Shown piece by piece: positions 13,761 to 63,610 of a stretch of DNA of 64,000 nt. The DNA is taken from positions 94,317-158,316 of the forward strand of contig JAGXRP010000066.1 in the NCBI GenBank assembly GCA_018335795.1, written 5' to 3'. Source of the stretch: Desulfobulbaceae bacterium. GTDB lineage: Bacteria > Bacteroidota > Ignavibacteria > Kapaibacteriales > UBA2268. Numbering within the stretch: position 1 is the first letter of the stretch; each line of letters opens with the position of its first letter. A program made the position numbers and the translations under genes. Below the pieces are notes generated by a model. It did not search any database and was not told the DNA's origin. It saw only the letters and a list, made by a program, of their open reading frames with translations.

Positions 13761-13872
13761 ATGATTTTATAGAAATTTAGCTTTTAAAGAAAGTATTTTT
13801 ATGGTATAGTATTTGAGATAAGTTAGCTTAAATTGAAAAATAATTGTTTAATATAATAGAGGTGCAAACCTT

Positions 13873-41484: not shown

Positions 41485-41639
41485 AATTAATTATGCTATA
41501 TTACGTCACATAATATCGTTCTTTAAACACACATTTTATAACAACATCCTCACAATCAACTAAAAACAAACAAAAATAAAATTAATTGAAATATATCTCG
41601 TTTACCGAAATTAATGACTTTACATAAATACGGTAGAAT

Positions 41640-42797: not shown

Positions 42798-42819
42798 TTA
42801 TGCAACATAAGGTTTTGAG

Positions 42820-43668: not shown

Positions 43669-43764
43669 TTAAACCAGAATTTATAATATTGCTAAAAGGG
43701 AATTCATAAAACAAATTCCCTTTTTTTCGTCTATACAAAATTATAGTACCTTTTTTTTGGAGCA

Positions 43765-46700: not shown

Positions 46701-47004
46701 AAGCGGCGAATTCCCAATTATCGGTGTAAATACATTCATTAATTCAAGTGATGATAATCCCTACGAGAAAATGCAAATTATTCGGACATCTGATGAAGAG
46801 AAATTGCAAAGACTATCGGAAGTTAAAGGATTCCAAGAACGCAACGCCGATAAAGTAGATGCAGCTCTTAGAAATTTGAGGGAAGTTGCTATTTCCGGCG
46901 GAAACATCTTTGCCGAATTGCTCAATACAGTTCAATATGCAACTATGGGGCAAATCACTTCTGTTCTTTACAAAATTGGCGGGAAATACCGTAGAGGGAT
47001 GTAA
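43765..47004 (+). CDS. icmF: Fused isobutyryl-CoA mutase (B12-binding domain + MeaB-like G-protein domain + mutase catalytic domain)
   Basis: 1079 aa. The N-terminal B12-binding Rossmann region (IVTAAALFDGHDVSINLFRRLLQKRGAEIIHIGHNRSVSEV) and a P-loop GTPase region (LGVTGTGGSGKSSL ... VVINKFE) are followed by a large methylmalonyl-CoA-mutase-like catalytic domain. Domain order and size are as in IcmF. Confidence 0.85.
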   Translation: MMQKIRIVTAAALFDGHDVSINLFRRLLQKRGAEIIHIGHNRSVSEVVTVALQEDADAILVSSYQGGHNEYFRYMLDMLKENDAADILIFGGGGGVILPSEATTLESYGVKRIYHATEGQKIGIDGIADDIINSIIQHRKSIAKFIPNNELIKQNNSAQSYLIAKQLSFFENCTDDCNRDTYRKIYADNDKGKSIVLGVTGTGGSGKSSLNDEIIGRFLSTTQNFKIGILAVDPSKSNTGGALLGDRIRYNQIYNKNVFFRSFATRSSKSEIPESIKDSIAILKSCGYDLIIVETSGIGQANSEVVTISDKSVYVMTAEFGAPTQLEKIDMLDKADFIVINKFEKRGSEDAYREVKINYLRNRNVKTDKTLTLDELELPVYACSSNHFNNPGLNRLFKDLTASYADKNVEFDYEFIAKMPTKHIVDYSLINNDKISYLSEIAESIAQYKILVARQSGIAEKAYAYKIAYESTTDNDLRNRLIAEYEIFYDELTEESKKYINNWSKVIENYSQDEIKYSVQGKELTINSFSKSLSGSKIPKVALPKFNDWKNILEFCYMENLPGEFPYTAGVFPFKRTTEDPKRQFAGEGSPERTNRRFHYLSKDDAAKRLSVAFDGITLYAEDPAEQPDIYGKIGESGVSICSVEDMDRLLAGFDQTDPLTSVSMTINAPAPIMVAFYFMTAYNRALKKLENDGMVLDAAARENLKLETFRKLRGTVQADMLKEDQAQNTIIFSIDFAMKLIGDLQEYLSINKIRNYYSLSISGYHIAEAGANPISQLAFTLANGFTYVEYFLNRGLKVDDFAPNLSFFFSNGMDPEYSVIGRVARRIWSVAMKNKYGADERSQRLKYHIQTSGRSLHAQEIDFNDIRTTLQGLLAFYDNCNSLHTNSYDEAVTTPTEESVRRSMAIQLILSKEFGMLKNENPNQGSFIIEELTDLVEEAVLMEFRRLSRRGGVLGAMETQYQRSKIQEESMYYEYMKQSGEFPIIGVNTFINSSDDNPYEKMQIIRTSDEEKLQRLSEVKGFQERNADKVDAALRNLREVAISGGNIFAELLNTVQYATMGQITSVLYKIGGKYRRGM

Positions 47005-47014
47005 AGAATAAATC

Positions 47015-48787: not shown

Positions 48788-50958
48788 AGCATTCCCGAGC
48801 GTTTACGCACAAACCATTCTATTGAAAATAGCAAAATTGCAATAATCAGCAACCATGGCTGACTCCACAAGGCAAACTCGCTTCTTTCGGTTACAGGTCG
48901 AGCTTTGAAATTCTTGTGATTTTGAATTGCATCTAATAATTCATTTGCATTTTCTGGAGTGAAGAACTCGCCACCCGAGATATATGCCAAATTACGAAGC
49001 AAACTTGTATTCATCCTCAAATTAAGATATTCCGCCGGAGTTTCGCCGACTGTAAATCTGCCGTCATCTTTGCCTAATTGATTCTGCCCTAATTTTGCTG
49101 TTCCCTTGAATACGTGGTCACCGGCGGGAAGAGATTCCATTGCCCCAAAATATCGCCCATTATTAATTGGAGACATAATTATGGTTCGAGTTTCGTCAAG
49201 AGATTCAATTTGCAATTCTACTATCGCATTATCAACTGTTTGGTATGAAGCATCATAAACTTGAGCAACAAATTCAATTCGTTCACCCACATTATACAGT
49301 TGTTTTGAAGGCTTAATAATTAATTGTTTTGCCTTATCTTTCAAAGATAGCCATCGAATTGAGTTCTCGAAAAACAGAGTAAATATATCTGTAGCTTCAT
49401 TCCGACCGCGAGATACTTCCACAGCATGGCCGGCTAATTTCCATCTGAATAATCCGTAGCCCATCACTGCAATACTCTTTGTTTGTTGGAATTCGCGCGT
49501 CATGATTAATGGCTCGGCAATCGGGACATTGTTCACTTTCATCGAAGCCACAAGTTCGGATTCCGATTTGATTCTGACAAATGTCTCGGTTTTATAAATT
49601 GGTGGCAAATTATTCCATTGATTCAAATCTTCATCAGTTCCGTTGATTCTAATCAAAGGATTGGACAAGGCTCTCGGGTTGAGGTCAACGTTGACCATGA
49701 ATTCCTTTGCTCTCGTGGAAGCAACATTGAAAGGTAAAAATTCTTCAAATTTTTTGAGTTTATTGTAATCAGTTTCTCGGCCCGCAATAAATAATATTGA
49801 TTTACCTTTGGAAATGTGGTTCACCAAATTCTGTACCGTTGCATCGGACGTGTTTGCTGTCGGGAAATTTACGAAAATAAAGACTTCTGTTTCATTCAAA
49901 TCTTTTTGAGTTGGCTCATTATAAAAGCTCGTTCCCAAACTTTGTATGAACTCTCTAATCTCAATTCCTTCTTGATTTTTAATAGCATTTTTGATGAATG
50001 AAATATCTGCAACTGCCGAACCCGAAAAAAACGATATTATCCTCTTGTTTTTGAGCACTTTAACAAACTTAGCTATTTGATTATTTTTATGCGTAATTTC
50101 ACCTTCCAAATTTTCCAATTTTATGCTCAGTTTTTTGTTACCCTCAGTTTTCGGCTCGTAAGTGAAATCAACAGAGTATTCGGTTCTATTTAGTGTCAAT
50201 TCTATTGTTGTTTCGCCGATGCCGATATTTTCCTCGAAGAATTGCACCTTTACACTTTTGCCTTCAAAACCATTGGCATCAAATCTGATATTGACAGGCA
50301 CTTTGTCATTGATATAAACTGCATCATTTGTGATTATATTAACAATTGCGACATCTTTGGGGTAAGTAGAATCCCCGATTCCAACTACAAAAACCGGTTT
50401 GCCGAGTCGCTCGGCAGTGTAAATAGGATTGTCGCCACTATTAAATGCCCCATCGGTGAAAATAACAATGCTTCTCAAATTTTCATCGCTCATTGAACGG
50501 TTTATGTTGCCCAAAGCATTGGATAAATCTGTGTTGCTGCCGTCTAATTCTAATGATTCAAAATCAAATGATTCACTTTCTTGAACAGTATTCGAAAATT
50601 TCCGTACAATTAAATCATCACCAAGTTGCTCCAATGCAGATTCTTCCATTGATTTCTTATAGCCGGATTTGCGGTCACCTCCGGCATCATCTAATGACAT
50701 CGAAAGCGAATTATCCAATAATGCGACCACGACAGGCTCTTTCATGCTTCCACGAATTGCTGTGTAAACCGGCTCGAATAATGCGAAAAGCAATAACACC
50801 AAAGCCAATGCCCGCATGACAGTCAATAGAGTTTTACGGCGAGGAGTGATTTCAGGAACAGTTTTGCGATATGACCAAATCGAAAATGCTATCAAAGCCA
50901 GCGAAATTATGATTAATACTGCCCAACTGCCACTTATCCCGAAATAATATGAATTCAT
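48784..50958 (-). CDS. BatA-like membrane protein with N-terminal double-TM segment and von Willebrand factor A domain
   Basis: Two N-terminal TM helices (WAVLIIISLALIAFSIW ... LLTVMRALALVLLLFALFEP) in the arrangement typical of the 'N-terminal double-transmembrane' BatA-type domain. A MIDAS-like DxSxS motif (VALLDNSLSMS) and a C-terminal TM helix follow. 724 aa. Confidence 0.5.
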   Translation of the reverse strand: MNSYYFGISGSWAVLIIISLALIAFSIWSYRKTVPEITPRRKTLLTVMRALALVLLLFALFEPVYTAIRGSMKEPVVVALLDNSLSMSLDDAGGDRKSGYKKSMEESALEQLGDDLIVRKFSNTVQESESFDFESLELDGSNTDLSNALGNINRSMSDENLRSIVIFTDGAFNSGDNPIYTAERLGKPVFVVGIGDSTYPKDVAIVNIITNDAVYINDKVPVNIRFDANGFEGKSVKVQFFEENIGIGETTIELTLNRTEYSVDFTYEPKTEGNKKLSIKLENLEGEITHKNNQIAKFVKVLKNKRIISFFSGSAVADISFIKNAIKNQEGIEIREFIQSLGTSFYNEPTQKDLNETEVFIFVNFPTANTSDATVQNLVNHISKGKSILFIAGRETDYNKLKKFEEFLPFNVASTRAKEFMVNVDLNPRALSNPLIRINGTDEDLNQWNNLPPIYKTETFVRIKSESELVASMKVNNVPIAEPLIMTREFQQTKSIAVMGYGLFRWKLAGHAVEVSRGRNEATDIFTLFFENSIRWLSLKDKAKQLIIKPSKQLYNVGERIEFVAQVYDASYQTVDNAIVELQIESLDETRTIIMSPINNGRYFGAMESLPAGDHVFKGTAKLGQNQLGKDDGRFTVGETPAEYLNLRMNTSLLRNLAYISGGEFFTPENANELLDAIQNHKNFKARPVTERSEFALWSQPWLLIIAILLFSIEWFVRKRSGML

Positions 50959-51020
50959 TTATGTATTTTCCGATTTTAATATTTTGTTCATCAAGTACTA
51001 ATCAATAACGTTGAAGTGTG

Positions 51021-51326
51021 CTATTTCTTTTGATTCTCAGCCAATAGTTGCATTGCAATTGACTCAAATTCTGTTTCTAAATCCATTTCCGAAATTTGCT
51101 TTCCGGCTCTCGAATACCAATACTCGGCATTCCAAATATCGCCTTCTTTGCGGTGCAAGTAAGCATGTATCCATGCTGCATTCTTACTCCCGAGATTTTG
51201 AACGATGTCATGAGCCTTGTCCCAATTTCCCTTATATTCATGCCAAAGCGCCTCGAGTTCCTTACTGAAAACAGGATTCGGGGCTTCAGTCTTAAATATT
51301 TGAGCTATTTCATTTTTGGCTTTCAT
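51021..51326 (-). CDS. Hypothetical small protein (101 aa)
   Basis: Intact ORF in an otherwise gene-free gap. No recognisable motif. Confidence 0.35.
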   Translation of the reverse strand: MKAKNEIAQIFKTEAPNPVFSKELEALWHEYKGNWDKAHDIVQNLGSKNAAWIHAYLHRKEGDIWNAEYWYSRAGKQISEMDLETEFESIAMQLLAENQKK

Positions 51327-51494
51327 TTCAAATTTCTAATTTTTATTCAATAAAGACGATTAAATGATGTAAATTAAGAAAAAATGCTACTTTTTAAGAA
51401 CTTTTCTTGTTAATATGACGATTGTTTCTTAATTTCGATAAATTGAAATGTCAATTTGACAAATAAATGATTTTAAATCAATTGAGGAGAAATA

Positions 51495-53489
51495 ATGTCA
51501 GAGAAAAAATTTGTACCTTTTGTTTCACCTGATTCCAATATGCTGGAGTTTTCAGTCAAAGCATTGGTCATAGGCTTGGTGATGTGTGTCATCCTAGGCG
51601 CTGCGAATGCCTACTTGGGTCTGAAAGCCGGTATGACAATCGCCGCTACTTATCCTGCGGCTGTAATTGGAATGGCTGTTCTAAGAGCCTTCAAGGGAAC
51701 AATCTTAGAAGAAAATTTTGCTCGTACTGTCGGCTCGATTGGCGAATCTGTCGCTGCGGGTGCGATTTTTACATTGCCTGCCTTCTTTATTGCCGGAATA
51801 TGGACCGATTTCTACACACCGACTAATTATTTGATTGCTGCTGCTATCATGACTGTCGGTGGTGTACTTGGTATTATGTTTGTTGCTTTGTTACGCCGAA
51901 TTATGGTTGACGACAAAGAACTGCCTTTCCCCGAATCTGTAGCTGCAGGCGAAATCCACAAAGCAGGTCAAACCGGAACCGGTGGCAGTAAATTCTTGTT
52001 CATTGCTATGATTGGCGGTGCTTTAATCAAAACGCTTGGCGAAATGAAATTATTCTTGGCAAGTTTCAAGCATTTTTTCGTTTTCTCACCTCAAACCATC
52101 CCCGGAACAAGCTTTGTAGGCTCAGGTGGTTTGCTCTTTACTTCAATGACAATCAGCCCTGCTTATATGGGCGTGGGATATATTATCGGTCCTAAGCTCG
52201 CAGGTCTTGCTTTTGGTGGTGGATTGATTGCCTGGGGATTGTTGACACCGATTATTCAGTATTTTATACAACCTCATTATACTGGCGATGCCATACTCAC
52301 AGCCCAAACTGTTTGGAATAATATCGTACGCCCGATAGCAATCGGTGGTATGTTAGTGGGTGCTACTTACACACTATTCCGCATGCGTAACAGTTTGATG
52401 ACAGGCATTGCTCGCTCGGTGGGTGATGTGAAAAAAGCCGCAAGCGGTCAAAATGTTGACGAAATTAGAACAGAACGCGATATCAGCTTTACTTGGATTC
52501 TAATCGGTATTGCATTCGTTGCAATTTCAACATTTTTAATAACATTTTTAGTATTTAAAACTACATTCTTGATTGCTTTTGTTGCATCTACAGTTATGAT
52601 AATTTTAGCGTTCTTCTTCGCTGCAGTTTCGGGTTATCTCGTCGGGATTATGGGCTCGAGTAATAATCCTATTAGCGGACTTACGCTTACCGCACTCGTC
52701 GTTACAGCGATTATTCTCGTCGCATTAGGTGCCACAGGCAACGAAGGTGTAGCGGCAGTACTCGGTGTAGCTGCAATCGTTTGCGTTGCTGCTGCAGTAG
52801 CCGGAGAAATGCTCCAAGACCTAAAAGTCGGGCATATACTCGGCGGTACACCATGGAAAATGCAGCTCGGCGATATTGTCGGTGTAGTAATTGCAAGTGC
52901 AATACTATTCATACCACTTTTCATTTTGCACGAAGGGGATATCGCAACGGGGCTTAAAGAAGGCTATATCGGTGGATTCGGTAGTAAAGAATTGCCTGCA
53001 CCTCAAGCAAGTTTGATGGCGATGCTGTCGCAAGGTATAGTAGGTGGAAACATGACTTGGCCCCTTATCATAGTCGGTATGCTCATGGGATTTGCATTGA
53101 TTTTGATTCGTGCAGGCAGTCCAATGCTTATTAGTGTGGGTATGTATCTGCCGTTTGGAACAGTGTTTGCTATCTTTACAGGTGGTGTGATTAAAGGAGC
53201 TCTCGATTGGCTCACCACAAAATATAATATGAATGAGGCTCAAAAAGTTAGAGTAGAAAACATCGGAGTGCTGCTCGCTGCCGGATTTATTGCCGGTGAA
53301 GCTTTGATTGGCTTGATGTTTGCCGGATTTGCCTTTGCAGAAATCAACCTTTTTGCATTCTTCGAGCAACCTTCATTCCTCGTCAGTATAATTGTATTGC
53401 TTGTAATTGCTGCAATTATGATTTATCTGCCATTCAAGAATGCCGGTAGTCCTGACGAACCTGCGCCACCTTCTACCGGTGGGCATTAA
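51495..53489 (+). CDS. OPT-family oligopeptide transporter
   Basis: 664 aa, polytopic. The N-terminal region (LEFSVKALVIGLVMCVILGAANAYLGLKAGMTIAATYPAAVIGMAVLRAF) and overall Gly-rich TM architecture match OPT/YGL114w-type transporters. GAGGAG sits 7 nt upstream of the ATG. Confidence 0.8.
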   Translation: MSEKKFVPFVSPDSNMLEFSVKALVIGLVMCVILGAANAYLGLKAGMTIAATYPAAVIGMAVLRAFKGTILEENFARTVGSIGESVAAGAIFTLPAFFIAGIWTDFYTPTNYLIAAAIMTVGGVLGIMFVALLRRIMVDDKELPFPESVAAGEIHKAGQTGTGGSKFLFIAMIGGALIKTLGEMKLFLASFKHFFVFSPQTIPGTSFVGSGGLLFTSMTISPAYMGVGYIIGPKLAGLAFGGGLIAWGLLTPIIQYFIQPHYTGDAILTAQTVWNNIVRPIAIGGMLVGATYTLFRMRNSLMTGIARSVGDVKKAASGQNVDEIRTERDISFTWILIGIAFVAISTFLITFLVFKTTFLIAFVASTVMIILAFFFAAVSGYLVGIMGSSNNPISGLTLTALVVTAIILVALGATGNEGVAAVLGVAAIVCVAAAVAGEMLQDLKVGHILGGTPWKMQLGDIVGVVIASAILFIPLFILHEGDIATGLKEGYIGGFGSKELPAPQASLMAMLSQGIVGGNMTWPLIIVGMLMGFALILIRAGSPMLISVGMYLPFGTVFAIFTGGVIKGALDWLTTKYNMNEAQKVRVENIGVLLAAGFIAGEALIGLMFAGFAFAEINLFAFFEQPSFLVSIIVLLVIAAIMIYLPFKNAGSPDEPAPPSTGGH

Positions 53490-53514
53490 GTAACTTAACG
53501 AGGCATTATTTTCA

Positions 53515-53541
53515 AGGGGTTGTCTGTTTGGACAACCCTTT
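53515..53541 (+). terminator. Hairpin terminator after the OPT transporter gene
   Basis: aggggttgtc-tgtttg-gacaaccctt followed by tgttgtgtt, 25 nt after the stop. Confidence 0.6.
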
Positions 53542-53638
53542 GTTGTGTTATTAATTATGAAATAATTTATATTTTTGTTAGTTCAATATATATATATTTG
53601 ATTGAAATTTAATTTTACATACTTTTTTAGGAAGTGTT

Positions 53639-54148
53639 ATGAGGAGACTAATTTTAGGATTAATAATTTTTATAATGTCAATTATGATAATTAACGAGGC
53701 CAAAGCCTCGGGACCTATGGATAGAAATTTCGGCTTCGGAATCGTTTTTGGCGACCCATTCGGAGCCACAGTTAATTACTGGGTGACTAGAGAAAACTCA
53801 CTTGCTGCTTATATTGGTGCTTCATATTTTGGCGCATTGAGAATCGGTGGCGATTACCTTTTCCATTTCAATGCTTTCAATTCCCAAGTCGTCAAAATGT
53901 ACGCAGGACCTGGAATTGCAGTAGGCTTTGGACGTGGGCGAGGAATTATCTATAGCGAAAATAAAAATCGTTTCTATTATTGGGAAGATGACCAAGTTGG
54001 TATCGCTACTAGAGTAATTTTTGGCGTTAATATCACACCAGGAAGAGCTCCTTTCGAAATTTTTATCGAAGCCGGTCCTCTTATCGGCATATCCCCCGAT
54101 GTTGGAGTCAATGTTGATGCATCAATAGGCATTAGGTTTTATCCCTAA
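53639..54148 (+). CDS. Putative outer-membrane beta-barrel protein (169 aa)
   Basis: Signal peptide (MRRLILGLIIFIMSIMIINEAKA). Alternating hydrophobic/Gly-rich strands and a C-terminal aromatic motif (IGIRFYP). Confidence 0.4.
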   Translation: MRRLILGLIIFIMSIMIINEAKASGPMDRNFGFGIVFGDPFGATVNYWVTRENSLAAYIGASYFGALRIGGDYLFHFNAFNSQVVKMYAGPGIAVGFGRGRGIIYSENKNRFYYWEDDQVGIATRVIFGVNITPGRAPFEIFIEAGPLIGISPDVGVNVDASIGIRFYP

Positions 54149-54155
54149 GATTTTT

Positions 54156-54184
54156 TTGTAGTGCGAAATTATTCGTATATTTGC
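54156..54184 (+). promoter_or_regulatory. FCB-type sigma-A promoter (TTTG-N17-TATATTTG) upstream of tRNA-Pro
   Basis: ttTTTGtagtgcgaaattattcgTATATTTGcag. The -7 element matches TAnnTTTG and lies about 38 nt upstream of the mature tRNA 5' end. Confidence 0.5.
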
Positions 54185-54221
54185 AGTCCGATATAGGGCA
54201 ATTTTTGCAAATATCGAGGTT

Positions 54222-54298
54222 CGGGATGTAGCGCAGCCCGGTAGCGCACCACTTTGGGGTAGTGGGGGTCGGCGGTTCAAATCCGCCCATTCCGACCA
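54222..54298 (+). tRNA. tRNA-Pro (anticodon GGG), CCA encoded
   Basis: The cloverleaf folds by hand: acceptor CGGGATG/CATTCCG, D-arm GCGC-AGCCCGGTA-GCGC, anticodon arm CCACT-TTGGGGT-AGTGG with anticodon GGG and G37, T-arm GGCGG-TTCAAAT-CCGCC, discriminator A plus CCA. It is close to E. coli tRNA-Pro(GGG). Confidence 0.9.
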
Positions 54299-54316
54299 AA
54301 ACAAAAACCCTTCCAT

Positions 54317-54345
54317 ATAGGGACAGAACAGCGTTCTGTCCCTAT
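54317..54345 (+). terminator. Perfect 13-bp hairpin directly downstream of tRNA-Pro
   Basis: atagggacagaac-agc-gttctgtccctat followed by aatattttt. Confidence 0.55.
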
Positions 54346-54468
54346 AATATTTTTGATAGATCCGAGGAAACTTCGGAAGTTTCCAAAGCTTCCGAAGTTT
54401 GGATTGCATGACTTCAGGTGTTACAACTGACGGAAAGAAGAAAATTTCTCAAAAAAAGTGAAATTTTA

Positions 54469-54499
54469 TTTGCACAGTTCAAAAAATTTTATATATTTG
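54469..54499 (+). promoter_or_regulatory. Consensus FCB-type promoter inside repeat unit 1
   Basis: TTTG-N19-TATATTTG. The predicted TSS at about 54506 is 30 nt upstream of a hairpin terminator. Confidence 0.5.
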
Positions 54500-54536
54500 C
54501 ATATTCCATTTTGTATGTTTAGAGCATTTTCCTACC

Positions 54537-54571
54537 AAAGCGAGCTATCCTTGCTCGCTTTAGTTTTTTTT
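54537..54571 (+). terminator. Rho-independent terminator of unit 1
   Basis: aaagcgagc/gctcgcttt stem followed by T8. Confidence 0.7.
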
Positions 54572-54648
54572 GTGCCCCTGTCCCTTCTTTGTAACACCTG
54601 ACGAGACAAGAAAATTTCTCAAAAAAAGTGAAATTTTATTTGCACAGT

Positions 54649-54669
54649 ATAAAAAATTTTATATATTTG
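54649..54669 (+). promoter_or_regulatory. Consensus FCB-type promoter inside repeat unit 2
   Basis: TTTGcacagtataaaaaattttaTATATTTG. Confidence 0.5.
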
Positions 54670-54736
54670 CATTGCCTTTAAAATTATTTTAAAAATATTT
54701 AATTTTTAAAAACAAAAACATGTAGAAGTTCTCGCA

Positions 54737-54773
54737 CCGAAGCAAGCTCCCCGTGCTAGCTTCGGTTTTTTTT
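54737..54773 (+). terminator. Rho-independent terminator of unit 2
   Basis: ccgaagcaagc/gctagcttcgg stem followed by T8. Confidence 0.7.
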
Positions 54774-55025
54774 GCCCACTGTGCCGTCCGTCAGTTGTAA
54801 CAACTGACGAGACACAAAATCCCCATTTGCCAAAGGGAGAAAGCGAGCTTGCGAGCAGGGGGATTTATATTTGTCCACTTTCCCATCTTTGTTCTCTGTT
54901 CTTTCAGTTGTTACAACTGACAGGAAAAGATAACCACATTATTTCACGCAATGACACACTATTTCGTTAAAAATGTTAATTTTGTAATGTGATTTTGATT
55001 GTTGCAACAAATTAACATATGCTAC

Positions 55026-57788
55026 ATGGCTGAGAACATCAAAGACAAACTGAACAAATTGGTTTTCGATTTTAAATTGTCCAACTATCGCGATTTAAAC
55101 GAGAGCCAAACACGAATTTCATACATTGATAGATTTTGGGAGCTTTTGGGATGGAATGTCCGCAATCCGCTCGAAGTCCAAGTGGAACGCACCGACAAAA
55201 GCTATATGGGCAGAAGACCCGATTACCGCTTCATCAAAGGGAACAAAACCCTGTTTTTTGTGGAGGCAAAAAAACCTGCCGAAGATTTGACTAATCCCCG
55301 ACACATCTATCAGACCAAGCTCTATTGCTGGAACGGTAAAGTGCCTATTGCAATATTGACAGATTTTGAAGAGTTCCGTCCTTTCAGGGCGCTCGGCAAA
55401 CCGCTGATTACCGATGCAAAAAAAGGGCTAATCAAAGAATTGGACATGGTTTGCGATGAATATCCCGACCGAGTTGACGATTTGTTGGCTACATTTGGGC
55501 GGGAAGCCGTTTTTGCGGGCTCTTTGGACGAACTTGTCAAACCCACTCAGTTAGAGCTTCGCGATACTGTGGATAAACATTTCCTCAATTCGCTATCCAA
55601 ATGGAGAATCGAACTCGCATCCCTAATCGCAAAAAAGAATCATTTCGATAATGAGTTCGAGCTTGCCGAAGCCACTCAACGAATCTTGGACAGGCTTGTG
55701 TTTCTGCGGATTTTGCAAGATAGGGACATCGAAAACACGGATTTCATCAAGAGCATTCTCGAGCATCGAGTAGGCAATTCCTATGCAGCATTTCTGTTGA
55801 TTTGCAAGGAACTCGCACCGAAATACAACGGGTTGATATTCAATCCGCATCCGCTGTCTGAAAATCTCACAATCGAAGCATCGCTATTCAAAAATATCGT
55901 CAAAGAGCTGAATGTGGAGGATTCGCCCTACAGATTCGACGAAATCCCCGTAGAAGTGCTCGGCACAATTTACGAACGATTCTTGGGTGACGAAATCAGC
56001 TTCGACAAGGGCAGACAAGTTGTCATAGACCAAAAGCCCGAAGTGCGGAAAGCGGGCGGCGTTTACTACACTCCGCAGTATATCGTCGAGTACATCGTCG
56101 CCAACACTGTCGGGAAGCTATTGGAGCAAGCCCGAACACCGGACGATGTCAGCCGGCTCAAAATTCTCGACCCCGCATGTGGCTCCGGCTCATTCCTTTT
56201 GGGGGCTTTCGATGCACTAATCAAATGGCACGAGGATTACTACAACGCTCATATCACCGAAATTCACGAAAAGAAGGGCAGAAACACGCATTTGCTGGCA
56301 TTCATGGACGAAGAGACCGGCAAGTTGAGATTGACCGCACGAAAAAAGGGCAGAATACTCCAAAACAACATTTACGGAGTGGATATAGACAAGCAGGCGA
56401 CCGAAGTAGCACAGATGTCGCTCTATTTGAAAGTGTTGGAGGGCATAGCCAAGGAGCCGCTCGCAGTCTTGGGATTCCAAGATGCACTGCTGCCAAAGAT
56501 GGACGACAACATCAAATGCGGCAACTCGCTAATCGGGAGCGACTTCATCAGCGACGACTTTTTCGGGATGTCCGAGCGGGAGCGGCACAAAATCAACCCA
56601 TTCGATTGGGAAGTCGCATTCCCATTCTTGAAAATGACCGGTGGCTTCGACGCCGTCATCGGTAATCCGCCGTATGGGGCTGAGTTGCATTTTGATACGA
56701 TTAGATTCTTGAGTGAGAAATATCAAGTCGGCACAACTGATACAGCTGCTTTATTCATGATAACTGCAACAAGAAAAATTAAAACGAATGGATTTGTTGG
56801 ATTCATAATTCCAAAACCTTTTACATATGCCTCTAATTGGAAAAAAGTTAGACAGTCATTATTGAGTGATATAAATAAGATAGTTGACTGTTCAAAAGTA
56901 TGGAAAGAAGTTAAGTTGGAGATGACAGTTTATATTAGTCAAAAAGGTTCTAATAGTAAAATATTTTCGTCGGGAATTATTAAAAAGGACAAAGTTTTAC
57001 ATATTGCTGATATAGATAAGAATCTATGTGAAGAATTTGGTTTTATACTTAATGGTGTTAGTCAAAATGAAATTGAAATTGCCAGAAAAATTAAATCTAA
57101 TGGTGTGAGTCTGAACAATTTAGTTACGAATCAAAGGGGTGGATTATACCAAAAATTCCTTAACAATTCAGGTGATTTATTTGCAATGGGGGGAAAGCAA
57201 ATAAATAGATTTGGAATTGATAATAGACCCAAAGGTATGATTGATGCAACAATAAACATTGATAATAAATCATTCATCAAGCCTGATTCAATTTTAGTTC
57301 AGAATATTGTTGCACATATTGCAAATCCAAGACCTCATATTAAGATTATAGCAACCTCAATTGTCAATGGTGACTTAAGTAAATATATTATTTTAGATAC
57401 AGTAAATCAATTAGTATGCGCCGAGCATGTATCAAGTAAATATATTCTGGGTATTATTAATTCAAAAATAATAAACTGGTACTGTTATCGATTTATTTTT
57501 GCAAACGCGATTAGGACAATGCATTTTGATAGCCCTGTTACCGAGAGAATTCCCATCCCCCAAGACCCTAACCCCCAAACCCAAGAAAAACTCATTGAAC
57601 TCGTCGAGCGAATGTTGCGATTGCACAAGGAATTGCAAACAGCCACAGAGTTCGACCGCAAGCACATAGAGCAATACATCTCCCGCACGGACAAAGAAAT
57701 AGACGCCCTCGTTTACCAACTCTACGCCCTCACTCCCGAAGAAATAAGAATTGTGGAGGGAGAGGGTGAGAAGGAGGATTTTGATTAA
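55026..57788 (+). CDS. Single-chain Type IIG/IIL restriction-modification enzyme (PD-(D/E)xK endonuclease + gamma-class N6-adenine methyltransferase + target-recognition domain), Eco57I/MmeI-like
   Basis: N-terminal nuclease motifs (RRPDYRF ... LFFVEAKKP). Methyltransferase motif I (ILDPACGSGSFLLGAFDAL) and motif IV (VIGNPPYG). A long variable C-terminal region follows. The probable start is ATG 55026 (MAENIKDKL). The tool ORF begins at an upstream TTG (54999). Confidence 0.8.
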   Translation: MAENIKDKLNKLVFDFKLSNYRDLNESQTRISYIDRFWELLGWNVRNPLEVQVERTDKSYMGRRPDYRFIKGNKTLFFVEAKKPAEDLTNPRHIYQTKLYCWNGKVPIAILTDFEEFRPFRALGKPLITDAKKGLIKELDMVCDEYPDRVDDLLATFGREAVFAGSLDELVKPTQLELRDTVDKHFLNSLSKWRIELASLIAKKNHFDNEFELAEATQRILDRLVFLRILQDRDIENTDFIKSILEHRVGNSYAAFLLICKELAPKYNGLIFNPHPLSENLTIEASLFKNIVKELNVEDSPYRFDEIPVEVLGTIYERFLGDEISFDKGRQVVIDQKPEVRKAGGVYYTPQYIVEYIVANTVGKLLEQARTPDDVSRLKILDPACGSGSFLLGAFDALIKWHEDYYNAHITEIHEKKGRNTHLLAFMDEETGKLRLTARKKGRILQNNIYGVDIDKQATEVAQMSLYLKVLEGIAKEPLAVLGFQDALLPKMDDNIKCGNSLIGSDFISDDFFGMSERERHKINPFDWEVAFPFLKMTGGFDAVIGNPPYGAELHFDTIRFLSEKYQVGTTDTAALFMITATRKIKTNGFVGFIIPKPFTYASNWKKVRQSLLSDINKIVDCSKVWKEVKLEMTVYISQKGSNSKIFSSGIIKKDKVLHIADIDKNLCEEFGFILNGVSQNEIEIARKIKSNGVSLNNLVTNQRGGLYQKFLNNSGDLFAMGGKQINRFGIDNRPKGMIDATINIDNKSFIKPDSILVQNIVAHIANPRPHIKIIATSIVNGDLSKYIILDTVNQLVCAEHVSSKYILGIINSKIINWYCYRFIFANAIRTMHFDSPVTERIPIPQDPNPQTQEKLIELVERMLRLHKELQTATEFDRKHIEQYISRTDKEIDALVYQLYALTPEEIRIVEGEGEKEDFD

Positions 57789-57907
57789 ACGTTTCCCACA
57801 TATATACTTAAAAAATATTATGAATTCCTAAAAATGTTGAAATCTTTTTTGGTTATTTTTTACTTTTGGAGGCTTATATTTGCTTTTTTAATGTTAAAGG
57901 ATTTAAT

Positions 57908-59026
57908 ATGAGTAAGGTAGTATATGTTGATGAATCAGGCGCACATGGTTTTAATAGTTCGGATTCAAGAGGTAATTTTTATGTCATTTCGTTGGTCATT
58001 ATTGATGAAGTGAAGCGAAGTGATTTTGAATCAAAATATTTATCGGTGATTAGGAATCATCATCAGAGCGAGTTTTTAAAGTATTCAACTCTTAAAAAGA
58101 AGCGAAATTGCAATGAAATCATTGACGAAATTATGAAGTTAGAATTCTCGTTTTTCTCCTTAGTTGTTGACAAGAGTAAAATTCATAAGGATAGTGGATT
58201 GAAGTTTAAAACAGTATTTTACAAATTTCTTCATAGAATTGTGTATGAACGACTTTTTAAATCATTTCAAAAAATTAATATAATCAGTGATGATTATTGT
58301 GATGATGATTTTCATGATAGTTTTAAAAAATATATTAAATCTATTACTCAAGGAATGAGCTTATTCAAAGATGTAGAGATTACATTTGTAAATCGTGATC
58401 CCATTGTACAATTGTCAGATATCATTTCTGGTGTTTTTAGAGATAAACAGATAAATGAGCAAATTGATATTTACAATAAGTTAAAGACAAAATCACTATT
58501 TTGCTATAATTTCCCTCAGTCTTTTTACATAAACCAAGATAATGTAAATGATAGTTTGTTAGAGCAGAACGGAGTATTGAATTCAGATATTATTCAAGAA
58601 ATGTCTATTAAAGTCACTATAGAAGCAATTCATAAATTAAAGGATGAAAATTCAAAATTTTTATTACATCTACTATTGTTGAATTCCTTCTCTTTACATG
58701 ATGATTATATTCACAGTCATAAAATTGTGAATCACTTTAAAGAATTTTTTGATATTGACATTGAGGAGAATCAAGTCAAACGGAGCATGATTCCAAAATT
58801 ACGAGACAAAGGTGTTTTAATTTCAAGTTCTCCAAAAGGATATAAATTACCTACGAAATATTCTGATATATTGGATTATATTGCAATAACTGATAGGAAC
58901 GTTAATAACCAGATAAATAGGTTAGAGAATTTTCTGAAAGATTTTGCAATAAAGCTTGATAAGCCGATTCACGATTTAGTTGATGAAAGTAAGTATTTTA
59001 AATTGAATCAGATATTGGCTCGTTAA
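57908..59026 (+). CDS. DUF3800-family protein
   Basis: Begins MSKVVYVDESGAHGF, the characteristic (I/V)Y(I/V)DESG N-terminus of DUF3800. It ends at about 372 aa and is very AT-rich. The likely start is 57908 (the tool ORF starts 57866). Confidence 0.55.
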   Translation: MSKVVYVDESGAHGFNSSDSRGNFYVISLVIIDEVKRSDFESKYLSVIRNHHQSEFLKYSTLKKKRNCNEIIDEIMKLEFSFFSLVVDKSKIHKDSGLKFKTVFYKFLHRIVYERLFKSFQKINIISDDYCDDDFHDSFKKYIKSITQGMSLFKDVEITFVNRDPIVQLSDIISGVFRDKQINEQIDIYNKLKTKSLFCYNFPQSFYINQDNVNDSLLEQNGVLNSDIIQEMSIKVTIEAIHKLKDENSKFLLHLLLLNSFSLHDDYIHSHKIVNHFKEFFDIDIEENQVKRSMIPKLRDKGVLISSSPKGYKLPTKYSDILDYIAITDRNVNNQINRLENFLKDFAIKLDKPIHDLVDESKYFKLNQILAR

Positions 59027-59126
59027 GAATTTTGTCCCATCAGTTGACAACTTACGGAACAACAAGGAGTTATTATGATTTTCGATAATGAAACATTTAC
59101 AAATTCATGCGAAACAATATAAAACT

Positions 59127-59867
59127 ATGTCAAAATCAAAAATAGAATGGACAGAGAGTACATGGAACCCGATTACGGGGTGTACGAAAATTTCTTCCGG
59201 TTGCCGATTCTGCTACGCAGAAATTATGGCAAGAAGGTTGCAAGCTATGGGGCAACCCAAGTATGCCGATGGTTTCAAGCTGACTATTCACCCGGATACC
59301 CTTGACGAGCCATATACTTGGAAAAAACCCAGAGTGGTATTCGTTAATTCGATGAGCGATATTTTTCATAAGGACGTTCCGATTGACTTCATCCAAAAAA
59401 TTTTCAAGGTAATCAACGACAATCCGCAACATGTTTTTCAGGTTCTGACCAAACGGGCAGATGTACTATATAAATATGACAGCGAGGGTTTGCTGAATTG
59501 GTCGGAGAATTTGTGGATGGGTGTAACTGTGGAAAGTTCTAAAGTTACCAAAAGAATAGATTTTTTGAGACGAACCGGTGCACATGTAAAATTTCTCTCC
59601 TGCGAACCCTTGATTAGTGCTATTCCCAATATGAATCTTAGCGGAATTGATTGGGTAATTGCCGGTGGCGAAAGCGGACGCACTCCACGCCCAATAGACA
59701 AAGAATGGGTGCTCGACATAAAGCAACAATGCGACAATCTGGGCGTTGCCTTTTACTTCAAACAATGGGGCGGTACAAATAAGAAAAAAAGCGGTAGAAT
59801 GATTGATGGCGTTACTTATGATGCCATGCCCAGAAGCGTCACAATATCCAACACCAAAACGGCATAG
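59127..59867 (+). CDS. Gp37/Gp68-family protein (DUF5131) with three-Cys motif
   Basis: MSKSKIEWTESTWNPITGCTKISSGCRFCYAE (Cx6CxxC) ... VFVNSMSDIF ... VIAGGESGRTPRPIDKEWVLDIKQQCDNLGVAFYFKQWGG. This matches the DUF5131 family pattern as I recall it. The likely start is 59127 (the tool ORF starts 59088). Confidence 0.7.
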   Translation: MSKSKIEWTESTWNPITGCTKISSGCRFCYAEIMARRLQAMGQPKYADGFKLTIHPDTLDEPYTWKKPRVVFVNSMSDIFHKDVPIDFIQKIFKVINDNPQHVFQVLTKRADVLYKYDSEGLLNWSENLWMGVTVESSKVTKRIDFLRRTGAHVKFLSCEPLISAIPNMNLSGIDWVIAGGESGRTPRPIDKEWVLDIKQQCDNLGVAFYFKQWGGTNKKKSGRMIDGVTYDAMPRSVTISNTKTA

Positions 59868-60009
59868 GTTCAATCCCATCTTTGTTCCTGAACCGAAACT
59901 AATGTACCAAAATCAAAACAAGGAAATCCCCCGAAAGCCGTTCCCCCTCTTGTAAGAGGGGGTTAGGGGGTGTTCTGTATCAAAAAAAAACAAAAAAAAA
60001 CAAAAATAA

Positions 60010-60040
60010 TTTGCACAGTATAAAAAATTTTATATATTTG
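60010..60040 (+). promoter_or_regulatory. Consensus FCB-type promoter inside repeat unit 3
   Basis: Identical to the unit 2 promoter. Confidence 0.5.
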
Positions 60041-60104
60041 CATTGCCTTTAAAATTATTTTAAAAATATTTAATTTTTAAAAACAAAAACACAATTTCTC
60101 TACC

Positions 60105-60140
60105 AAAGCGAGCTCCCCGTGCTCGCTTTGGTTTTTTTTA
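60105..60140 (+). terminator. Rho-independent terminator of unit 3
   Basis: aaagcgagc/gctcgcttt stem followed by T9. Confidence 0.7.
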
Positions 60141-60268
60141 TACCCACTGTGCCGTCCGTCAGTTGAACAACTGACGAGACACAAAAACCTGCTTTGCCAA
60201 AGGGGGATTTCCCCAAAAAAAAGCTGCCCCAATCGAGACAGCCATTTTTGTACAATATTGCTATGTAA

Positions 60269-62398
60269 TTAATTCGATGGTTCGGATATCAATCCACGCT
60301 TGCGGAGTAATGGCTCAATTGATGGCTCGGCACCGCGGAATTTGACGTATAGTTTCATCGGGTCTTCAGAGCGACCGCGTTCTAAGATGTTTTTTCGTAA
60401 AGAAGTGGCTGTCTTTTGGTCGAAAATTCCGTTTTCTTTGAATGCTTCGAATGCGTCCGAATCTAACACGCCTGACCAAATATAGCTGTAATATCCCGAT
60501 GAATATCCACCTGCAAAAATGTGGTTGAAGTATGTGCTTCTGTATCTGGGGATTATTTCGTCAATTAGTCCGATTTTCTTCATCTCTTTTTCCTCGAATG
60601 AGTTAACGTCCGATGTAAATGGTTTTGTCAAGGTGTGGTAAGCCATGTCGAGGTATGATGCCGCAAGGTATTCGCCTGTAGCAAATCCTTGGTTGAAGTG
60701 CTCGCTGGCACGCATCTTATTCAATAATTCACGGGGAATGACTTCGCCTGTTTTGTAGTGCTTGGCATACATTGCCATTACTTCGTCTTCTGCCGCCCAA
60801 TGTTCCATCACTTGCGATGGCAATTCGACAAAATCACGTGGCACGCTTGTACCTGATATCGAGACGTAATCGCATTGCGAAAATAGCCCATGAAGCGCAT
60901 GTCCGAACTCATGGAATAGGGTTGAGGCTTCGTCAAAAGTTAATAGTGATGGCGTATCTCCCGTGGGTGGCGAGAAGTTGCAAACGATGCTTACTACAGG
61001 GTGCACTCGCTTTCCGTCTTTGTTGAATTGCTCGCGGAAGCTGGTCATCCATGCACCGCCGCGTTTGCTGGCTCTTGGATGGAAATCTGTGTAAAACACA
61101 GATAAATGGCTCCCGTCTTTGTCCAAAACTTCGTAACATTTTACGTCTTCGTGATATACGGGAATATTTTTGATTTCTTTGAAAGAAATTCCCCAAAGTT
61201 TGTTTGCAACAGTGAAGGCACCTTGTAATACGTTATCCAGTTTGAAATAGGGACGAAGTGCTTCTTCGTCCAAGTCGAATTTTTCTTGACGCACTTTTTC
61301 GGCATAATAGCGCCAATCCCATGGTTCGAGTTTGAAATCCCCACCTTCGCGATTAATAAGTGCTTGGAATTGCATAGCTTCGTCCTTTGCAACTTTCAGA
61401 GCCGGTTCCCATAATTGGTCTAATAATTTGTAAACTCCTTCGGGGTTTTTCGCCATATTTTCTTCTAAAATGAAATGTGCATGGCTTTCATACCCGAGTA
61501 ATTGAGCGCGTTGAATTCGCAAATTAACTAAATTTTTGATTATTTCCTTATTGTCGAATTCGTTACCGTTGTTGCCACGTAGCATATATGCACGCCAGAT
61601 TTTTTCACGCAAATCTCGTTTGGCTGAATATTGCAAAAAAGGTAATAGGCTTGGGTTTTGCAATGTGAACATCCATTTGCCCTTATGTCCGGCTTTAGTG
61701 GCAGTTTCGGCGGCTGCATCAATAAGCGATTGTGGCAATCCTACCAAATCTTCTTTTTTATCCAAGAGCATCTGGAAGGCGTTATTTTCTGCTAATACAT
61801 TTTCGCCATATTTTAATGTCAATGATGACATTTCCTCGTTGATTTTACGCAATTTAGCTTGGTCATTGTCGTTGAGTCCGGCTCCATTGCGGATGAAACC
61901 TTTGTAAGTTTCTTCAAGCAATACGGCTTTTTCGCCGGTCAATTTCAATTTATCTTTTTGTTCGTAAACGCTTTTGACTTTGTTGAATAATATTTTATTC
62001 AAACGGATATTGTCGCCGTGCTTTGTGAGTTCGGGAGAGATTTCGCGAGCAAAAGCTTGAATATCAGGGTTTGTATTTGCTGAGTTGAGGTTGAAAAATA
62101 CACGTGAAACCGAAGCAAGCAATGAGCCGGCGCGTTCCAAAGCCTCGATAGTGTTCTCAAAAGTTGGGACTGCACGATTATTAGTGATTGCGCCGATTTC
62201 GAGATTATGTTGATGGAATGCTTCGTCAAAAGCGGGTTTGAAATGCTCTATTTTAATCTTATCGAAAGGTGGCACCCCAAAAGGCGTATCGAATGGCTTC
62301 AATAGCGGGTTGTCTTCTTTTGCATTTGCAGACATAATATTCATAAATAGTATCCCAATAAACAGATTCATAATAATAAACTTCATCATTCTATCCAA
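60269..62398 (-). CDS. dcp: M3-family zinc metallopeptidase (peptidyl-dipeptidase Dcp / oligopeptidase A-like), secreted
   Basis: Signal peptide. HEFGHALHG (HExxH zinc site) with the downstream Glu context typical of M3 peptidases. 709 aa. Confidence 0.85.
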   Translation of the reverse strand: MDRMMKFIIMNLFIGILFMNIMSANAKEDNPLLKPFDTPFGVPPFDKIKIEHFKPAFDEAFHQHNLEIGAITNNRAVPTFENTIEALERAGSLLASVSRVFFNLNSANTNPDIQAFAREISPELTKHGDNIRLNKILFNKVKSVYEQKDKLKLTGEKAVLLEETYKGFIRNGAGLNDNDQAKLRKINEEMSSLTLKYGENVLAENNAFQMLLDKKEDLVGLPQSLIDAAAETATKAGHKGKWMFTLQNPSLLPFLQYSAKRDLREKIWRAYMLRGNNGNEFDNKEIIKNLVNLRIQRAQLLGYESHAHFILEENMAKNPEGVYKLLDQLWEPALKVAKDEAMQFQALINREGGDFKLEPWDWRYYAEKVRQEKFDLDEEALRPYFKLDNVLQGAFTVANKLWGISFKEIKNIPVYHEDVKCYEVLDKDGSHLSVFYTDFHPRASKRGGAWMTSFREQFNKDGKRVHPVVSIVCNFSPPTGDTPSLLTFDEASTLFHEFGHALHGLFSQCDYVSISGTSVPRDFVELPSQVMEHWAAEDEVMAMYAKHYKTGEVIPRELLNKMRASEHFNQGFATGEYLAASYLDMAYHTLTKPFTSDVNSFEEKEMKKIGLIDEIIPRYRSTYFNHIFAGGYSSGYYSYIWSGVLDSDAFEAFKENGIFDQKTATSLRKNILERGRSEDPMKLYVKFRGAEPSIEPLLRKRGLISEPSN

Positions 62399-62478
62399 TT
62401 AATTAAACTATACATATCTTACAAATTTACGAATAAATAAATCATTTGTTTCACTAAATCGGATTGCCAAAACAAAAA

Positions 62479-62502
62479 AAGCCTCAAACGAATTTGAGGC
62501 TT
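62479..62502 (-). terminator. Rho-independent terminator (minus strand) after the lipoprotein gene
   Basis: aagcctcaaa-cgaa-tttgaggctt, a 10-bp stem. On the minus strand it is followed by TTTTTTTGTTTT. Confidence 0.75.
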
Positions 62503-62529
62503 AGGTTCTGTTTTTGTATAAACTTTATT

Positions 62530-63465
62530 TTATGATATGCGGATAACTCGAATCTTGAAGTTCTGAATATCGCCGGCTTTTTCACCGGTCGTAGTGCTAA
62601 ACAACTCACAAGAACCGGTGACTTCGAACTTTGTACCTGCACTTTGGGCAAAATTTTGGATAACTGCTGTACCTATGCAATTAAAAACTGTACCATTATG
62701 CTCTAAATACATAATAGCACCGGAGCTTTCATTAAAATTTACTGTTTGATTACTCTGATTCTGAATGCCGGTAGCAACAATCGAAATCCCAATTCTATAC
62801 ATTTCTTCTTCATCCTCATCATTAGAAATAACCATAGTTAGAGTTCCACTTTGTTGGTCATAAGCGGCAGCACCTTCCAATCTGTCGTCTGAAAATGTAA
62901 TGCTGGCAACTCCATTAATGGTCATTTGAATTTCCATGTACGAATAGTTAAGGTCATCATCCGGGTCATTATCATCTTCATCGGGTAATCTAATTGCTTT
63001 GAACGAGGCAGAAGTTACAGTAAAAGTTTCTAATCCATCCGAACTTATGAATTGACCTGAGAAAGTACCTTCGATTGTTTGACCAACAGCACCGTATTTT
63101 GTAATGTTGATTTTGCCCTTACCCGGTAATGCACCAAAAAGTAGGTTATCCTTCAAAATAAGAACATCATTATTTGGGTTAAAATCAAAACTACCAGTAC
63201 TATTTCCTTGGAATGTAATAGCCATTGCAAAAGCAGTCGGGTTTTGATTTCCAATTGGTACATATGATGTAAAGCCTATTTCTGTATTTCCGAACTTAAT
63301 ATCGTAGGCACCAAATCCGAGTTTGAAGGTCAAATCGCCTTTGTCTGATTTAACAACAGCAGAGTTCCCACCAATATTGTTGTTGTCCGTAGGATTTGTC
63401 GAGTTCTTACTGCAAGATGCTAAAGCCATTGCAAGTGCTAAAAGAATAATAGAAAGGTACTTCAT
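62530..63465 (-). CDS. Hypothetical lipoprotein
   Basis: Probable start MKYLSIILLALAMALASCSKNS (signal peptide and lipobox Cys). The body is Gly/Thr/Asn-rich and predicted beta-rich. No recognisable family. Confidence 0.5.
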   Translation of the reverse strand: MKYLSIILLALAMALASCSKNSTNPTDNNNIGGNSAVVKSDKGDLTFKLGFGAYDIKFGNTEIGFTSYVPIGNQNPTAFAMAITFQGNSTGSFDFNPNNDVLILKDNLLFGALPGKGKINITKYGAVGQTIEGTFSGQFISSDGLETFTVTSASFKAIRLPDEDDNDPDDDLNYSYMEIQMTINGVASITFSDDRLEGAAAYDQQSGTLTMVISNDEDEEEMYRIGISIVATGIQNQSNQTVNFNESSGAIMYLEHNGTVFNCIGTAVIQNFAQSAGTKFEVTGSCELFSTTTGEKAGDIQNFKIRVIRIS

Positions 63466-63610
63466 CTTACAATTTCCTAAAAAGTTTATAAACAAGTTAG
63501 GCAAATATAAGAATAATTTTAATTAAGGCAAAGCAAAAAAATCTGTATTTATATTAAATTATCACAGGAGTTAGGGCTAAGGGATATCAAATTTGTGGCA
63601 AATATTATTT

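Follow-up and report, generated by a model that had tools for sequence, protein, structure and literature searches.

Why should one intact gene be made of three parts that differ sharply in base composition? This question is raised by the restriction-modification (RM) gene at positions 55026-57788 of a 64,000-nt stretch of contig JAGXRP010000066.1, which we refer to as the window throughout. An earlier note on this DNA had described the gene as a GC-rich catalytic core, an AT-rich centre presumed to be the target recognition domain (TRD) and a GC-rich tail, and had proposed that an MmeI-family enzyme was acquired from a higher-GC donor and that its TRD was later replaced by recombination. Our analysis leads us to propose instead, with a probability of roughly 85%, an Eco57I-like Type IIG gene in a mobile islet, in which a GC-rich backbone carries two AT-rich cassettes that are swapped by homologous recombination.

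The mosaic in composition is confirmed and far exceeds what chance would produce. In a window with an overall GC content of 38.4%, in which the GC content at third codon positions (GC3) of the other genes ranges from 0.23 to 0.43, the core (55026-56690) has a GC3 of 0.58 and a GC content of 0.475, the centre (56691-57520) values of 0.21 and 0.293, and the tail (57521-57785) values of 0.56 and 0.485, very much as read by eye before. The step changes between the segments are highly significant (p ~1e-21, 3x2 chi-square on third positions), and the largest GC3 contrast within the gene, determined with a 276-codon sub-window, reached 0.37, whereas none of 13 other long genes in the window exceeded 0.11. 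GC at second codon positions (GC2) is 0.28-0.32 in core, centre and tail alike, so that the steps are mostly a matter of synonymous and first codon positions. By maximum likelihood, GC3 changes at nt 56733 and 57504, and each of these points is 60-90 nt inside the homology breakpoints described below (56675/56676 and 57563-57597).

Compared with the rest of the window, the core has a higher GC content than every window of equal length outside the insert that harbors the gene (maximum 0.449), and its distance to the host in relative synonymous codon usage (RSCU) is 0.74 versus a maximum of 0.55 for size-matched host segments. The central cassette, defined by homology as 56676-57562 and designated V1, has a GC content of 0.308 and lies among the lowest 1% of host windows. 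It is thus more AT-rich than the host and not "like the host", as had been assumed, while its RSCU distance (0.54) is inside the host range. Overlapping open reading frames (ORFs) of at least 40 aa are concentrated in the GC-rich parts, with 14 in the core, one in the centre and three in the tail. The cluster at 56177-56726, previously listed as spurious antisense ORFs, does contain four antisense ORFs, but one member (56177-56665, 162 aa) lies on the sense strand in another frame. The DNA of the insert is 100% identical in three assemblies, which rules out an assembly chimera as the source of the mosaic.

The evidence that carries our reading comes from three other alleles of the same backbone, which were found in a search space of 5.8 billion proteins: P0001, encoded on contig L001 (HGW-Ignavibacteriae-1), P0002 on L003 (a Candidatus Kapabacteria metagenome-assembled genome, MAG) and P0003 on L004. 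Compared with the window protein, their identity is 98-100% at aa 1-550, falls to 24-28% at aa 556-832 and rises again to 74-93% in the tail. At the DNA level, conserved block A of the window is 96.0-96.6% identical to the three other alleles (95-97% among all four). Identity stops directly behind the NPPY codons, except that the L004 allele has NPPW and diverges 3-4 nt before this point. No DNA similarity was detected between V1 of the window and the corresponding region of the L001, L003 and L004 alleles, and the loss of identity is accompanied by length changes of 14-60 residues. Homology returns in conserved block B, starting at window position 57563 for L001 and at 57597 for L003 and L004, and extends to 57775 with 93-96% DNA identity. 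One variant of this right junction is common to the window and L001 and the other to L003 and L004, and the break coincides with the start of the C-terminal helices.

Near-identical flanks with unrelated sequence between them strongly support the replacement of V1 as a cassette, by recombination as judged from the aligned alleles. Since V1 starts right behind NPPY, the swapped unit holds methyltransferase motifs V-VIII besides the TRD. The proposal that the TRD was replaced by recombination is therefore borne out as far as an exchangeable cassette between conserved flanks is concerned, but not in the form that the TRD moved alone. Along the gene, GC3 runs in all four alleles from 0.5-0.7 to 0.1-0.3 and back to ~0.6, and V1 has a GC3 of 0.19-0.23 in all four mutually unrelated cassettes. 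Together with the position of V1 in the lowest 1% of host windows, this argues that V1 is not host-derived DNA.

The relatives of V1 likewise differ from those of the core. The best matches of the centre (50-55% identity) come from proteins whose cores are 32-77% identical, and a search with V1 alone returned a fragment of the same allele followed by matches of at most 58% from many phyla. The V1 regions of proteins whose cores are 35-50% identical are nearer to V1 of the window than those of the sister alleles are, so that core and centre indeed have different nearest relatives, as the earlier note had expected. The window's V1 type is the commonest cassette type in the family, the L003 cassette is nearest (45%) to methyltransferase-only proteins of 450-650 aa, and no close relatives of the L001, L003 and L004 cassettes were found among the 258 proteins retrieved. 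Across 116 full-length homologues, core identity and V1 identity are weakly correlated (Spearman 0.28). Four more backbone lineages combine cores of at least 90% identity with V1 regions below 40% (P0007/26/63, P0010/36/42/49/65, P0013/14 and P0027/33). The reverse case is represented by P0056 versus P0084, P0087 and P0088, where V1 is 99% identical and the cores are ~60% identical. Identity profiles place the junction in the NPPY-holding block every time, and in most cases identity is regained over the last 40-60 residues.

Many database ORFs of 270-400 aa correspond to the V1/TRD portion alone and match TaqI_C or have no Pfam match, e.g., P0133, P0143, P0154, and P0184; one TRD-only ORF lies in a complete Brachyspira hyodysenteriae genome. 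Such ORFs may have arisen from fragmented or split genes, or they may act as stand-alone reservoirs of cassettes.

By its domain content, the gene is predicted to encode a single-chain Type IIG RM enzyme of the Eco57I-like kind that unites nuclease, methyltransferase and TRD. The domain order is a PD-(D/E)XK nuclease, a helical connector, an Eco57I-type gamma-class N6-adenine methyltransferase, a TaqI_C-type TRD and a C-terminal helical tail. In Pfam searches, Eco57I scored 105.6 bits at aa 447-622, N6_Mtase 59 bits and TaqI_C, which marks the TRD in the same chain, 30 bits (cutoff 26.5) at aa 722-844, while an HSDR_N-like nuclease match at aa 61-119 stayed just under its cutoff (22.4 versus 25.1 bits). 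The PADLOC model REase_MTase_IIG (PDLC03604) matches aa 5-620 with E=6e-130. At the sequence level, the PD-(D/E)XK residues D66, E80, and K82 are invariant in 26 homologues, in which motif I (DPACGSGSF, aa 382-390) and motif IV (NPPY, aa 547-550) are also conserved. An AlphaFold model with a predicted local distance difference test (pLDDT) score of 86 and a predicted TM-score (pTM) of 0.83 shows a strand (541-546) that runs into NPPY, the remaining helices and strands of the methyltransferase until ~aa 640, a beta-rich TRD at ~aa 640-845 and three C-terminal helices at 850-911.

When the model was ranked by fold, the orphan methyltransferase CamA came first, followed by BrxX/PglX, BpuSI, DrdV, and MmeI, with identities of 13-18%; the likeness to CamA covers methyltransferase, TRD and tail (target TM-score 0.66-0.72). 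A search of the PDB by sequence matched only BREX PglX and the methyltransferase M.BseCI. BpuSI (PF07669, Eco57I-like; 3S1S) has the same order of nuclease, helical connector, gamma-class N6-adenine methyltransferase and TRD in one chain, and was found by the fold search (E=7e-20) at only ~13% identity, without a sequence-level PDB match. MmeI (5HR4) is likewise a fused enzyme whose TRD sets specificity, and its fold is broadly alike (query TM-score 0.48-0.50, 13% identity), but it ranks under CamA, BrxX/PglX, and BpuSI. The MmeI_N, MmeI_hel, MmeI_TRD, and MmeI_C domains (PF20464-PF20467) gave no match at E<=0.01 in the Pfam search, and the weak MmeI_Mtase match (PF20473, 41 bits) is overlapped by the stronger Eco57I match. 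We therefore reject the assignment to the MmeI family (Type IIL): Eco57I outscores MmeI_Mtase, the MmeI-specific domains are lacking and MmeI is not the closest fold. MmeI-family specificities are known to shift mostly via a few contact residues and not via whole-cassette exchange.

The surroundings of the gene point to a mobile unit. Synteny of the window with the sister genomes L010 and L011 ends at 54352/54353, ~55 nt past a tRNA-Pro gene, and is back at 60215 in L011. The break just past tRNA-Pro suggests that this tRNA gene marks a variable integration slot. In L011, a sister Kapabacteria genome, the same slot (12280-15623) holds a RhuM/Fic gene and a Por_Secre_tail gene, and this other cargo suggests a hotspot for variable cargo. 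Window positions 41550-54352 are syntenic with the L001 and L003 genomes at 87.2 and 88.7% nucleotide identity, and the 90% cluster of the window's OPT transporter includes proteins of both genomes. Their islet is located elsewhere, between a cNMP-binding gene and oadB, with flanks that are 88-92% identical to each other, and L004 has the islet-internal flanks alone in common with the window.

Divergence at four-fold sites for the same genome pairs is 0.11-0.15 in block A versus 0.37-0.43 in the OPT transporter and methylmalonyl-CoA mutase genes, i.e., synonymous divergence of the backbone is 3-4 times below that of housekeeping genes. This indicates that the backbone postdates the split of the species and was recently transferred horizontally. 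The earlier claim of horizontal acquisition thus holds, given both the low backbone divergence and the absence of the 5.9-kb insert from the sister slot.

We propose the following model, in which the features listed in Table 1 have separate histories. A ~5-kb islet consisting of the RM gene, a variable gene and a DUF5131 gene would have inserted beside tRNA-Pro. Its relatively GC-rich backbone blocks A, B, and C would have spread recently among related Ignavibacteria/Kapabacteria-like species, while V1, from behind NPPY to the C-terminal helices, and V2, the middle gene, would be replaced wholesale via recombination in the flanking blocks. Block B would then serve recombination on both sides, as the right handle of V1 and the left one of V2. 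Because the same polypeptide is predicted to methylate and to cut, a V1 swap would alter both specificities together and yield a new, self-consistent recognition specificity for both activities. The mosaic would be the footprint of these histories, with a backbone GC3 of ~0.58 and cassettes of ~0.2.

Table 1. Positions of the RM gene, its segments and neighboring features in the window.
Feature	Position	Strand	Remarks
tRNA-Pro (GGG)	54222-54298	+	ARAGORN; Rfam tRNA 61.5 bits
Window-specific insert, 5.86 kb, with defence islet	54354-60214		Slot in two sister genomes without insert
Left direct-repeat copy, ~220 nt	54620-54840	+	Promoter-like TTTG...TAnnTTTG element, terminator-like hairpin, palindrome
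Conserved block A	54950-56675	+	76 nt upstream plus codons 1-550; GC 0.47, GC3 0.58
Type IIG RM gene (predicted)	55026-57788	+	Intact ORF, 920 aa
NPPY codons AATCCGCCGTAT, left junction	56664-56675	+	Identity to other alleles stops here
Variable cassette V1 (aa 551-845)	56676-57562	+	Methyltransferase motifs V-VIII and TRD; GC 0.308, GC3 ~0.21-0.23
Conserved block B (aa 846-920)	57563-57788	+	C-terminal helices, GC 0.48
Variable cassette V2	57789-59125	+	GC 0.274, under any host window
DUF3800-family gene within V2	57905-59026	+	GC 0.277
Conserved block C, DUF5131 gene (Gp37/Gp68; PADLOC PDC-M41B/M30B)	59126-59867	+	Relatively GC-rich backbone block
Right direct-repeat copy, ~220 nt	59991-60207	+	88-94% identical to 54620-54840

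Several points weigh against this model. Only four alleles of the backbone are present in the databases searched: metagenome contigs gave zero matches with a protein pattern and an exact 29-nt tail pattern, and a scan of genome contigs returned the L001 genome only. Searches found no near-identical donor for V1 of the window (best non-self match 58%) or of L003 (best match 45%), so that no individual swap has been caught in the act for this clade. Any of the alleles may be the ancestral or a derived one, and the notion that the TRD was "later replaced" goes too far in this respect; the window's cassette is of the commonest type. Distant family members share stretches of micro-homology longer than the NPPY codons, and we discarded a simple micro-homology hotspot at NPPY: only 2 of the 13 distant members also have the 13-nt sequence AATCCGCCGTATG, and longer exact matches exist. 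That the junction is constant may therefore be due to selection for chimeras that work and not to a recombination hotspot. Finally, the activity of the enzyme and the specificities of its alleles are predictions.

Other histories could in principle produce such a mosaic. If the centre were merely fast-evolving and weakly constrained, without any recombination, its composition should follow its content of K, N, and I. V1 is rich in F, Y, M, I, N, and K residues (fraction 0.41 versus 0.30 in the host) and low in GC at first codon positions (0.34), as this explanation would have it. However, GC2 is equal throughout and the biggest step, from 0.58 to 0.21, is at GC3, which rules out amino acid composition as the cause. 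Moreover, identity drops from ~100 to ~25% within a few nucleotides, cassette lengths shift, V1 is closer to cassettes on distant cores than to those of its sister alleles, and elsewhere in the family a nearly identical V1 sits on clearly diverged cores. Sharp breakpoints and discordant relationships thus refute a history without recombination, which we regard as extremely improbable. An intragenomic shufflon, in which a site-specific recombinase swaps in silent TRD cassettes as in some Type I hsdS loci, would fit the many short TRD-only ORFs among the database homologues of V1. At this locus, however, neither blastn nor tblastn detected a second copy of core, V1 or tail in the 64-kb window, V1 is not bracketed by long inverted repeats, the islet contains no recombinase gene and its DNA is the same in all three assemblies. 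We therefore reject silent cassettes, which we consider very improbable here; the lack of duplicate gene parts, inverted repeats and a recombinase in the islet suggests that exchange takes place between genomes.

It is harder to explain why the cassettes are AT-rich. A single event, in which a GC-rich gene came from a higher-GC donor and host-like AT-rich DNA then overwrote the TRD alone, agrees with the islet being an insert and with the codon usage of the core, which lies beyond any host segment whereas that of V1 lies within the host range. We nevertheless find it improbable. V1 is AT-richer than 99% of host windows and has no homologue elsewhere in the window, half of the methyltransferase fold swaps along with the TRD, and the same low GC3 is seen in four different cassettes that the backbone carries in three host species. 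A high-GC relative was not found either, the core GC3 of the closest backbone relatives being only 0.27-0.42, and a high-GC donor is thus not in sight. The alternative that process and not origin shaped the mosaic needs no such donor: the blocks would be kept GC-rich by GC-biased gene conversion, as substrates that often undergo homologous recombination, or by selection, and the cassettes, for want of any diverged partner to pair with, would drift to the AT-rich equilibrium of mutation, with cassette exchange still occurring. The four unrelated V1 cassettes and four V2 genes are indeed equally AT-rich (GC3 0.19-0.26), and distant members from other hosts show similar core/cassette/tail GC3 profiles (L012 0.42/0.18/0.58, L013 0.37/0.17/0.47, L015 0.37/0.16/0.37, L030 0.66/0.35/0.72), and the core exceeds the cassette in 10 of 13 members on viral contigs. 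The lack of a relative of this backbone from a GC-rich host fits as well. Polarized singletons in block A number 39 strong-to-weak (S>W) versus 33 weak-to-strong (W>S), or 34 versus 21 at third positions, and are thus nearly balanced; this weak AT-ward decay comprises marginally fewer S>W changes than decay to the host GC3 of 0.34 predicts (p=0.048 at third positions), and the higher-GC donor is accordingly not demonstrated. However, the substitution test is borderline and was polarized by majority rule among four sequences, GC-biased gene conversion is only presumed in these organisms, and L014, of the P0013/P0014 lineage, has swapped cassettes with almost no mosaic (0.27/0.25/0.34), so swapping alone does not create GC-rich flanks. 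On balance we judge this explanation possible but unlikely. The cassettes may be drawn from an AT-rich common pool onto a backbone of other origin, or the GC-rich flanks may be maintained by biased gene conversion or selection. One speculative combination, which we hold to be rather doubtful, would make the islet a "plug-and-play" platform: GC-rich handles kept by biased gene conversion or selection, and two modules, the Type IIG specificity half and the DUF5131 partner, exchanged independently from a shared AT-rich pool, with a family-wide boundary at NPPY that is used even with stand-alone methyltransferases.

Our preferred reading, a GC-rich backbone with two swapped cassettes, extends to the genes behind the RM gene. 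V2 carries a TcmP gene in L003 (PADLOC PDC-M41A), a different TcmP gene with a GMT-wHTH domain in L004 (PDC-M30A) and an unrelated 198-aa ORF in L001. No DNA similarity was found in V2 between the window, L001, L003, and L004, and the V2 genes of all four alleles have a GC3 of 0.20-0.26. Block C, in contrast, is 95.5-97.2% identical to its counterparts in L003 and L004 and is missing from L001, which has no DUF5131 gene. TcmP-DUF5131 pairs (TIGR04474 and PF07505; PADLOC candidates PDC-M30 and PDC-M41) are thus complete in L003 and L004, directly behind the RM gene, whereas the window keeps the DUF5131 member (404 bits to PDC-M41B) and has an unrelated DUF3800 protein in place of the TcmP partner. 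On Bacteroidota plasmids, homologues of this protein do not neighbor DUF5131. The literature on DUF5131 and TcmP turned up nothing useful.

The borders of the islet are marked by repeats. Besides the two direct-repeat copies in Table 1, a further diverged tandem copy is present at 54450-54600, and a motif scan found only these three copies of the ~170-220-nt repeat in the 64 kb, all at islet borders. Within the repeat unit, TTTGCACAGTATAAAAAATTTTATATATTTGCA resembles a promoter of the Bacteroidetes type, and CCAAAGCGAGCTCCCCGTGCTCGCTTTGG, with T8 behind it, is a strong hairpin resembling a terminator. L003 has related copies upstream of its islet. An Rfam search of the islet borders returned the tRNA only and left the repeat unmatched. 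Such a repeat might encode a small RNA, or it might be a long target duplication as described for RM insertions.

Several smaller elements occur at the same borders. A palindrome, TCAGTTGT(N)ACAACTGA, is found in the window at 54414-54430, 54791-54807, 54904-54920, and ~60157-60180. The islets of L001 (7815-7920 and 10814-10923) and L003 (7814-7921 and 12725-12831) have ~105-nt direct repeats at both ends, with tandem CCGTCTTTGTTCTCTGT units enclosed between the two halves of the palindrome. In the window, the 13-mer CCCATCTTTGTTC is confined to 54882 and 59875; it also bounds the L004 islet. Palindromes and 13-mer could be the ends of a mobile unit, for which no recombinase was seen in the islet. 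A 40-nt element upstream of the RM start (54948-54987) recurs after the RM stop and before TcmP in L003 (10958-10997) and L004 (3136-3181), with copies that are 85-92% identical, and has no copy ahead of the DUF3800 gene of the window. It may be a common promoter or operator for the RM and TcmP genes.

Two observations concern the window at large. The source MAG is named "Desulfobulbaceae bacterium" in NCBI (protein MBS4001255.1), though the window is syntenic with an Ignavibacteriae MAG and a Candidatus Kapabacteria MAG, at 87-89% nucleotide identity over window positions 41550-54352 and 60215-63565; the Desulfobulbaceae label is probably a binning or taxonomy error. Elsewhere in the window, three giant ORFs follow each other on the forward strand (8048-13717, 13873-17580, and 17881-29490; 1889, 1235, and 3869 aa) with a GC3 of 0.23-0.27. 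The first two have no Pfam domain and the third has beta-helix and fn3 matches only.

How does this locus compare with known systems? Allelic TRD diversity in Type IIG enzymes, with conserved flanks around an unalignable specificity region in closely related genomes, has been reported, together with RM units that neighbor tRNA genes and RM insertions between long direct repeats (Furuta et al. 2010, PMC2853133). Conserved flanks and an unalignable specificity region are found here too. In contrast to those Type IIG alleles, the species compared here are ~87-89% identical in housekeeping DNA and carry the islet at different loci, the junction lies at NPPY so that part of the methyltransferase fold would move, the TRD is of the TaqI_C type and not HsdS-like, and a second swappable cassette follows. 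In the Type III modA genes of Neisseria and Haemophilus, horizontal transfer exchanges the recognition domain as one block, whose GC content is significantly below that of both flanks (Gawthorne et al. 2012, PMC3311624). A lower-GC central domain exchanged en bloc between conserved flanks is thus common to both, although modA genes encode Type III methyltransferases with a separate Res subunit and are phase-variable via repeats, whereas the enzyme described here is predicted to be a fused Type IIG protein, in whose gene a repeat scan of the locus reported no tandem repeats. The RM gene of the window has what characterizes such allelic cassettes, i.e., near-identical flanks, an unrelated centre with sharp breaks and a lower GC content in this centre. 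Since TRD alleles in Type IIG enzymes and low-GC domains in Type III mod genes are already documented, our finding is confirmatory and not surprising; what distinguishes it is the NPPY junction, the spread across species and the second cassette alongside.

With four alleles, nucleotide-sharp breakpoints and a backbone younger than its host species, the locus would be an unusually clean natural example of a one-step specificity change in a fused enzyme. In the Eco57I-like family, the exchangeable unit appears to extend from the NPPY motif to the C-terminal helices, a definition that could guide the engineering of chimeric Type IIG enzymes. The swap would also be linked to a small mobile islet in which the neighboring TcmP/DUF5131 genes, a candidate defence pair, undergo the same kind of remodelling.

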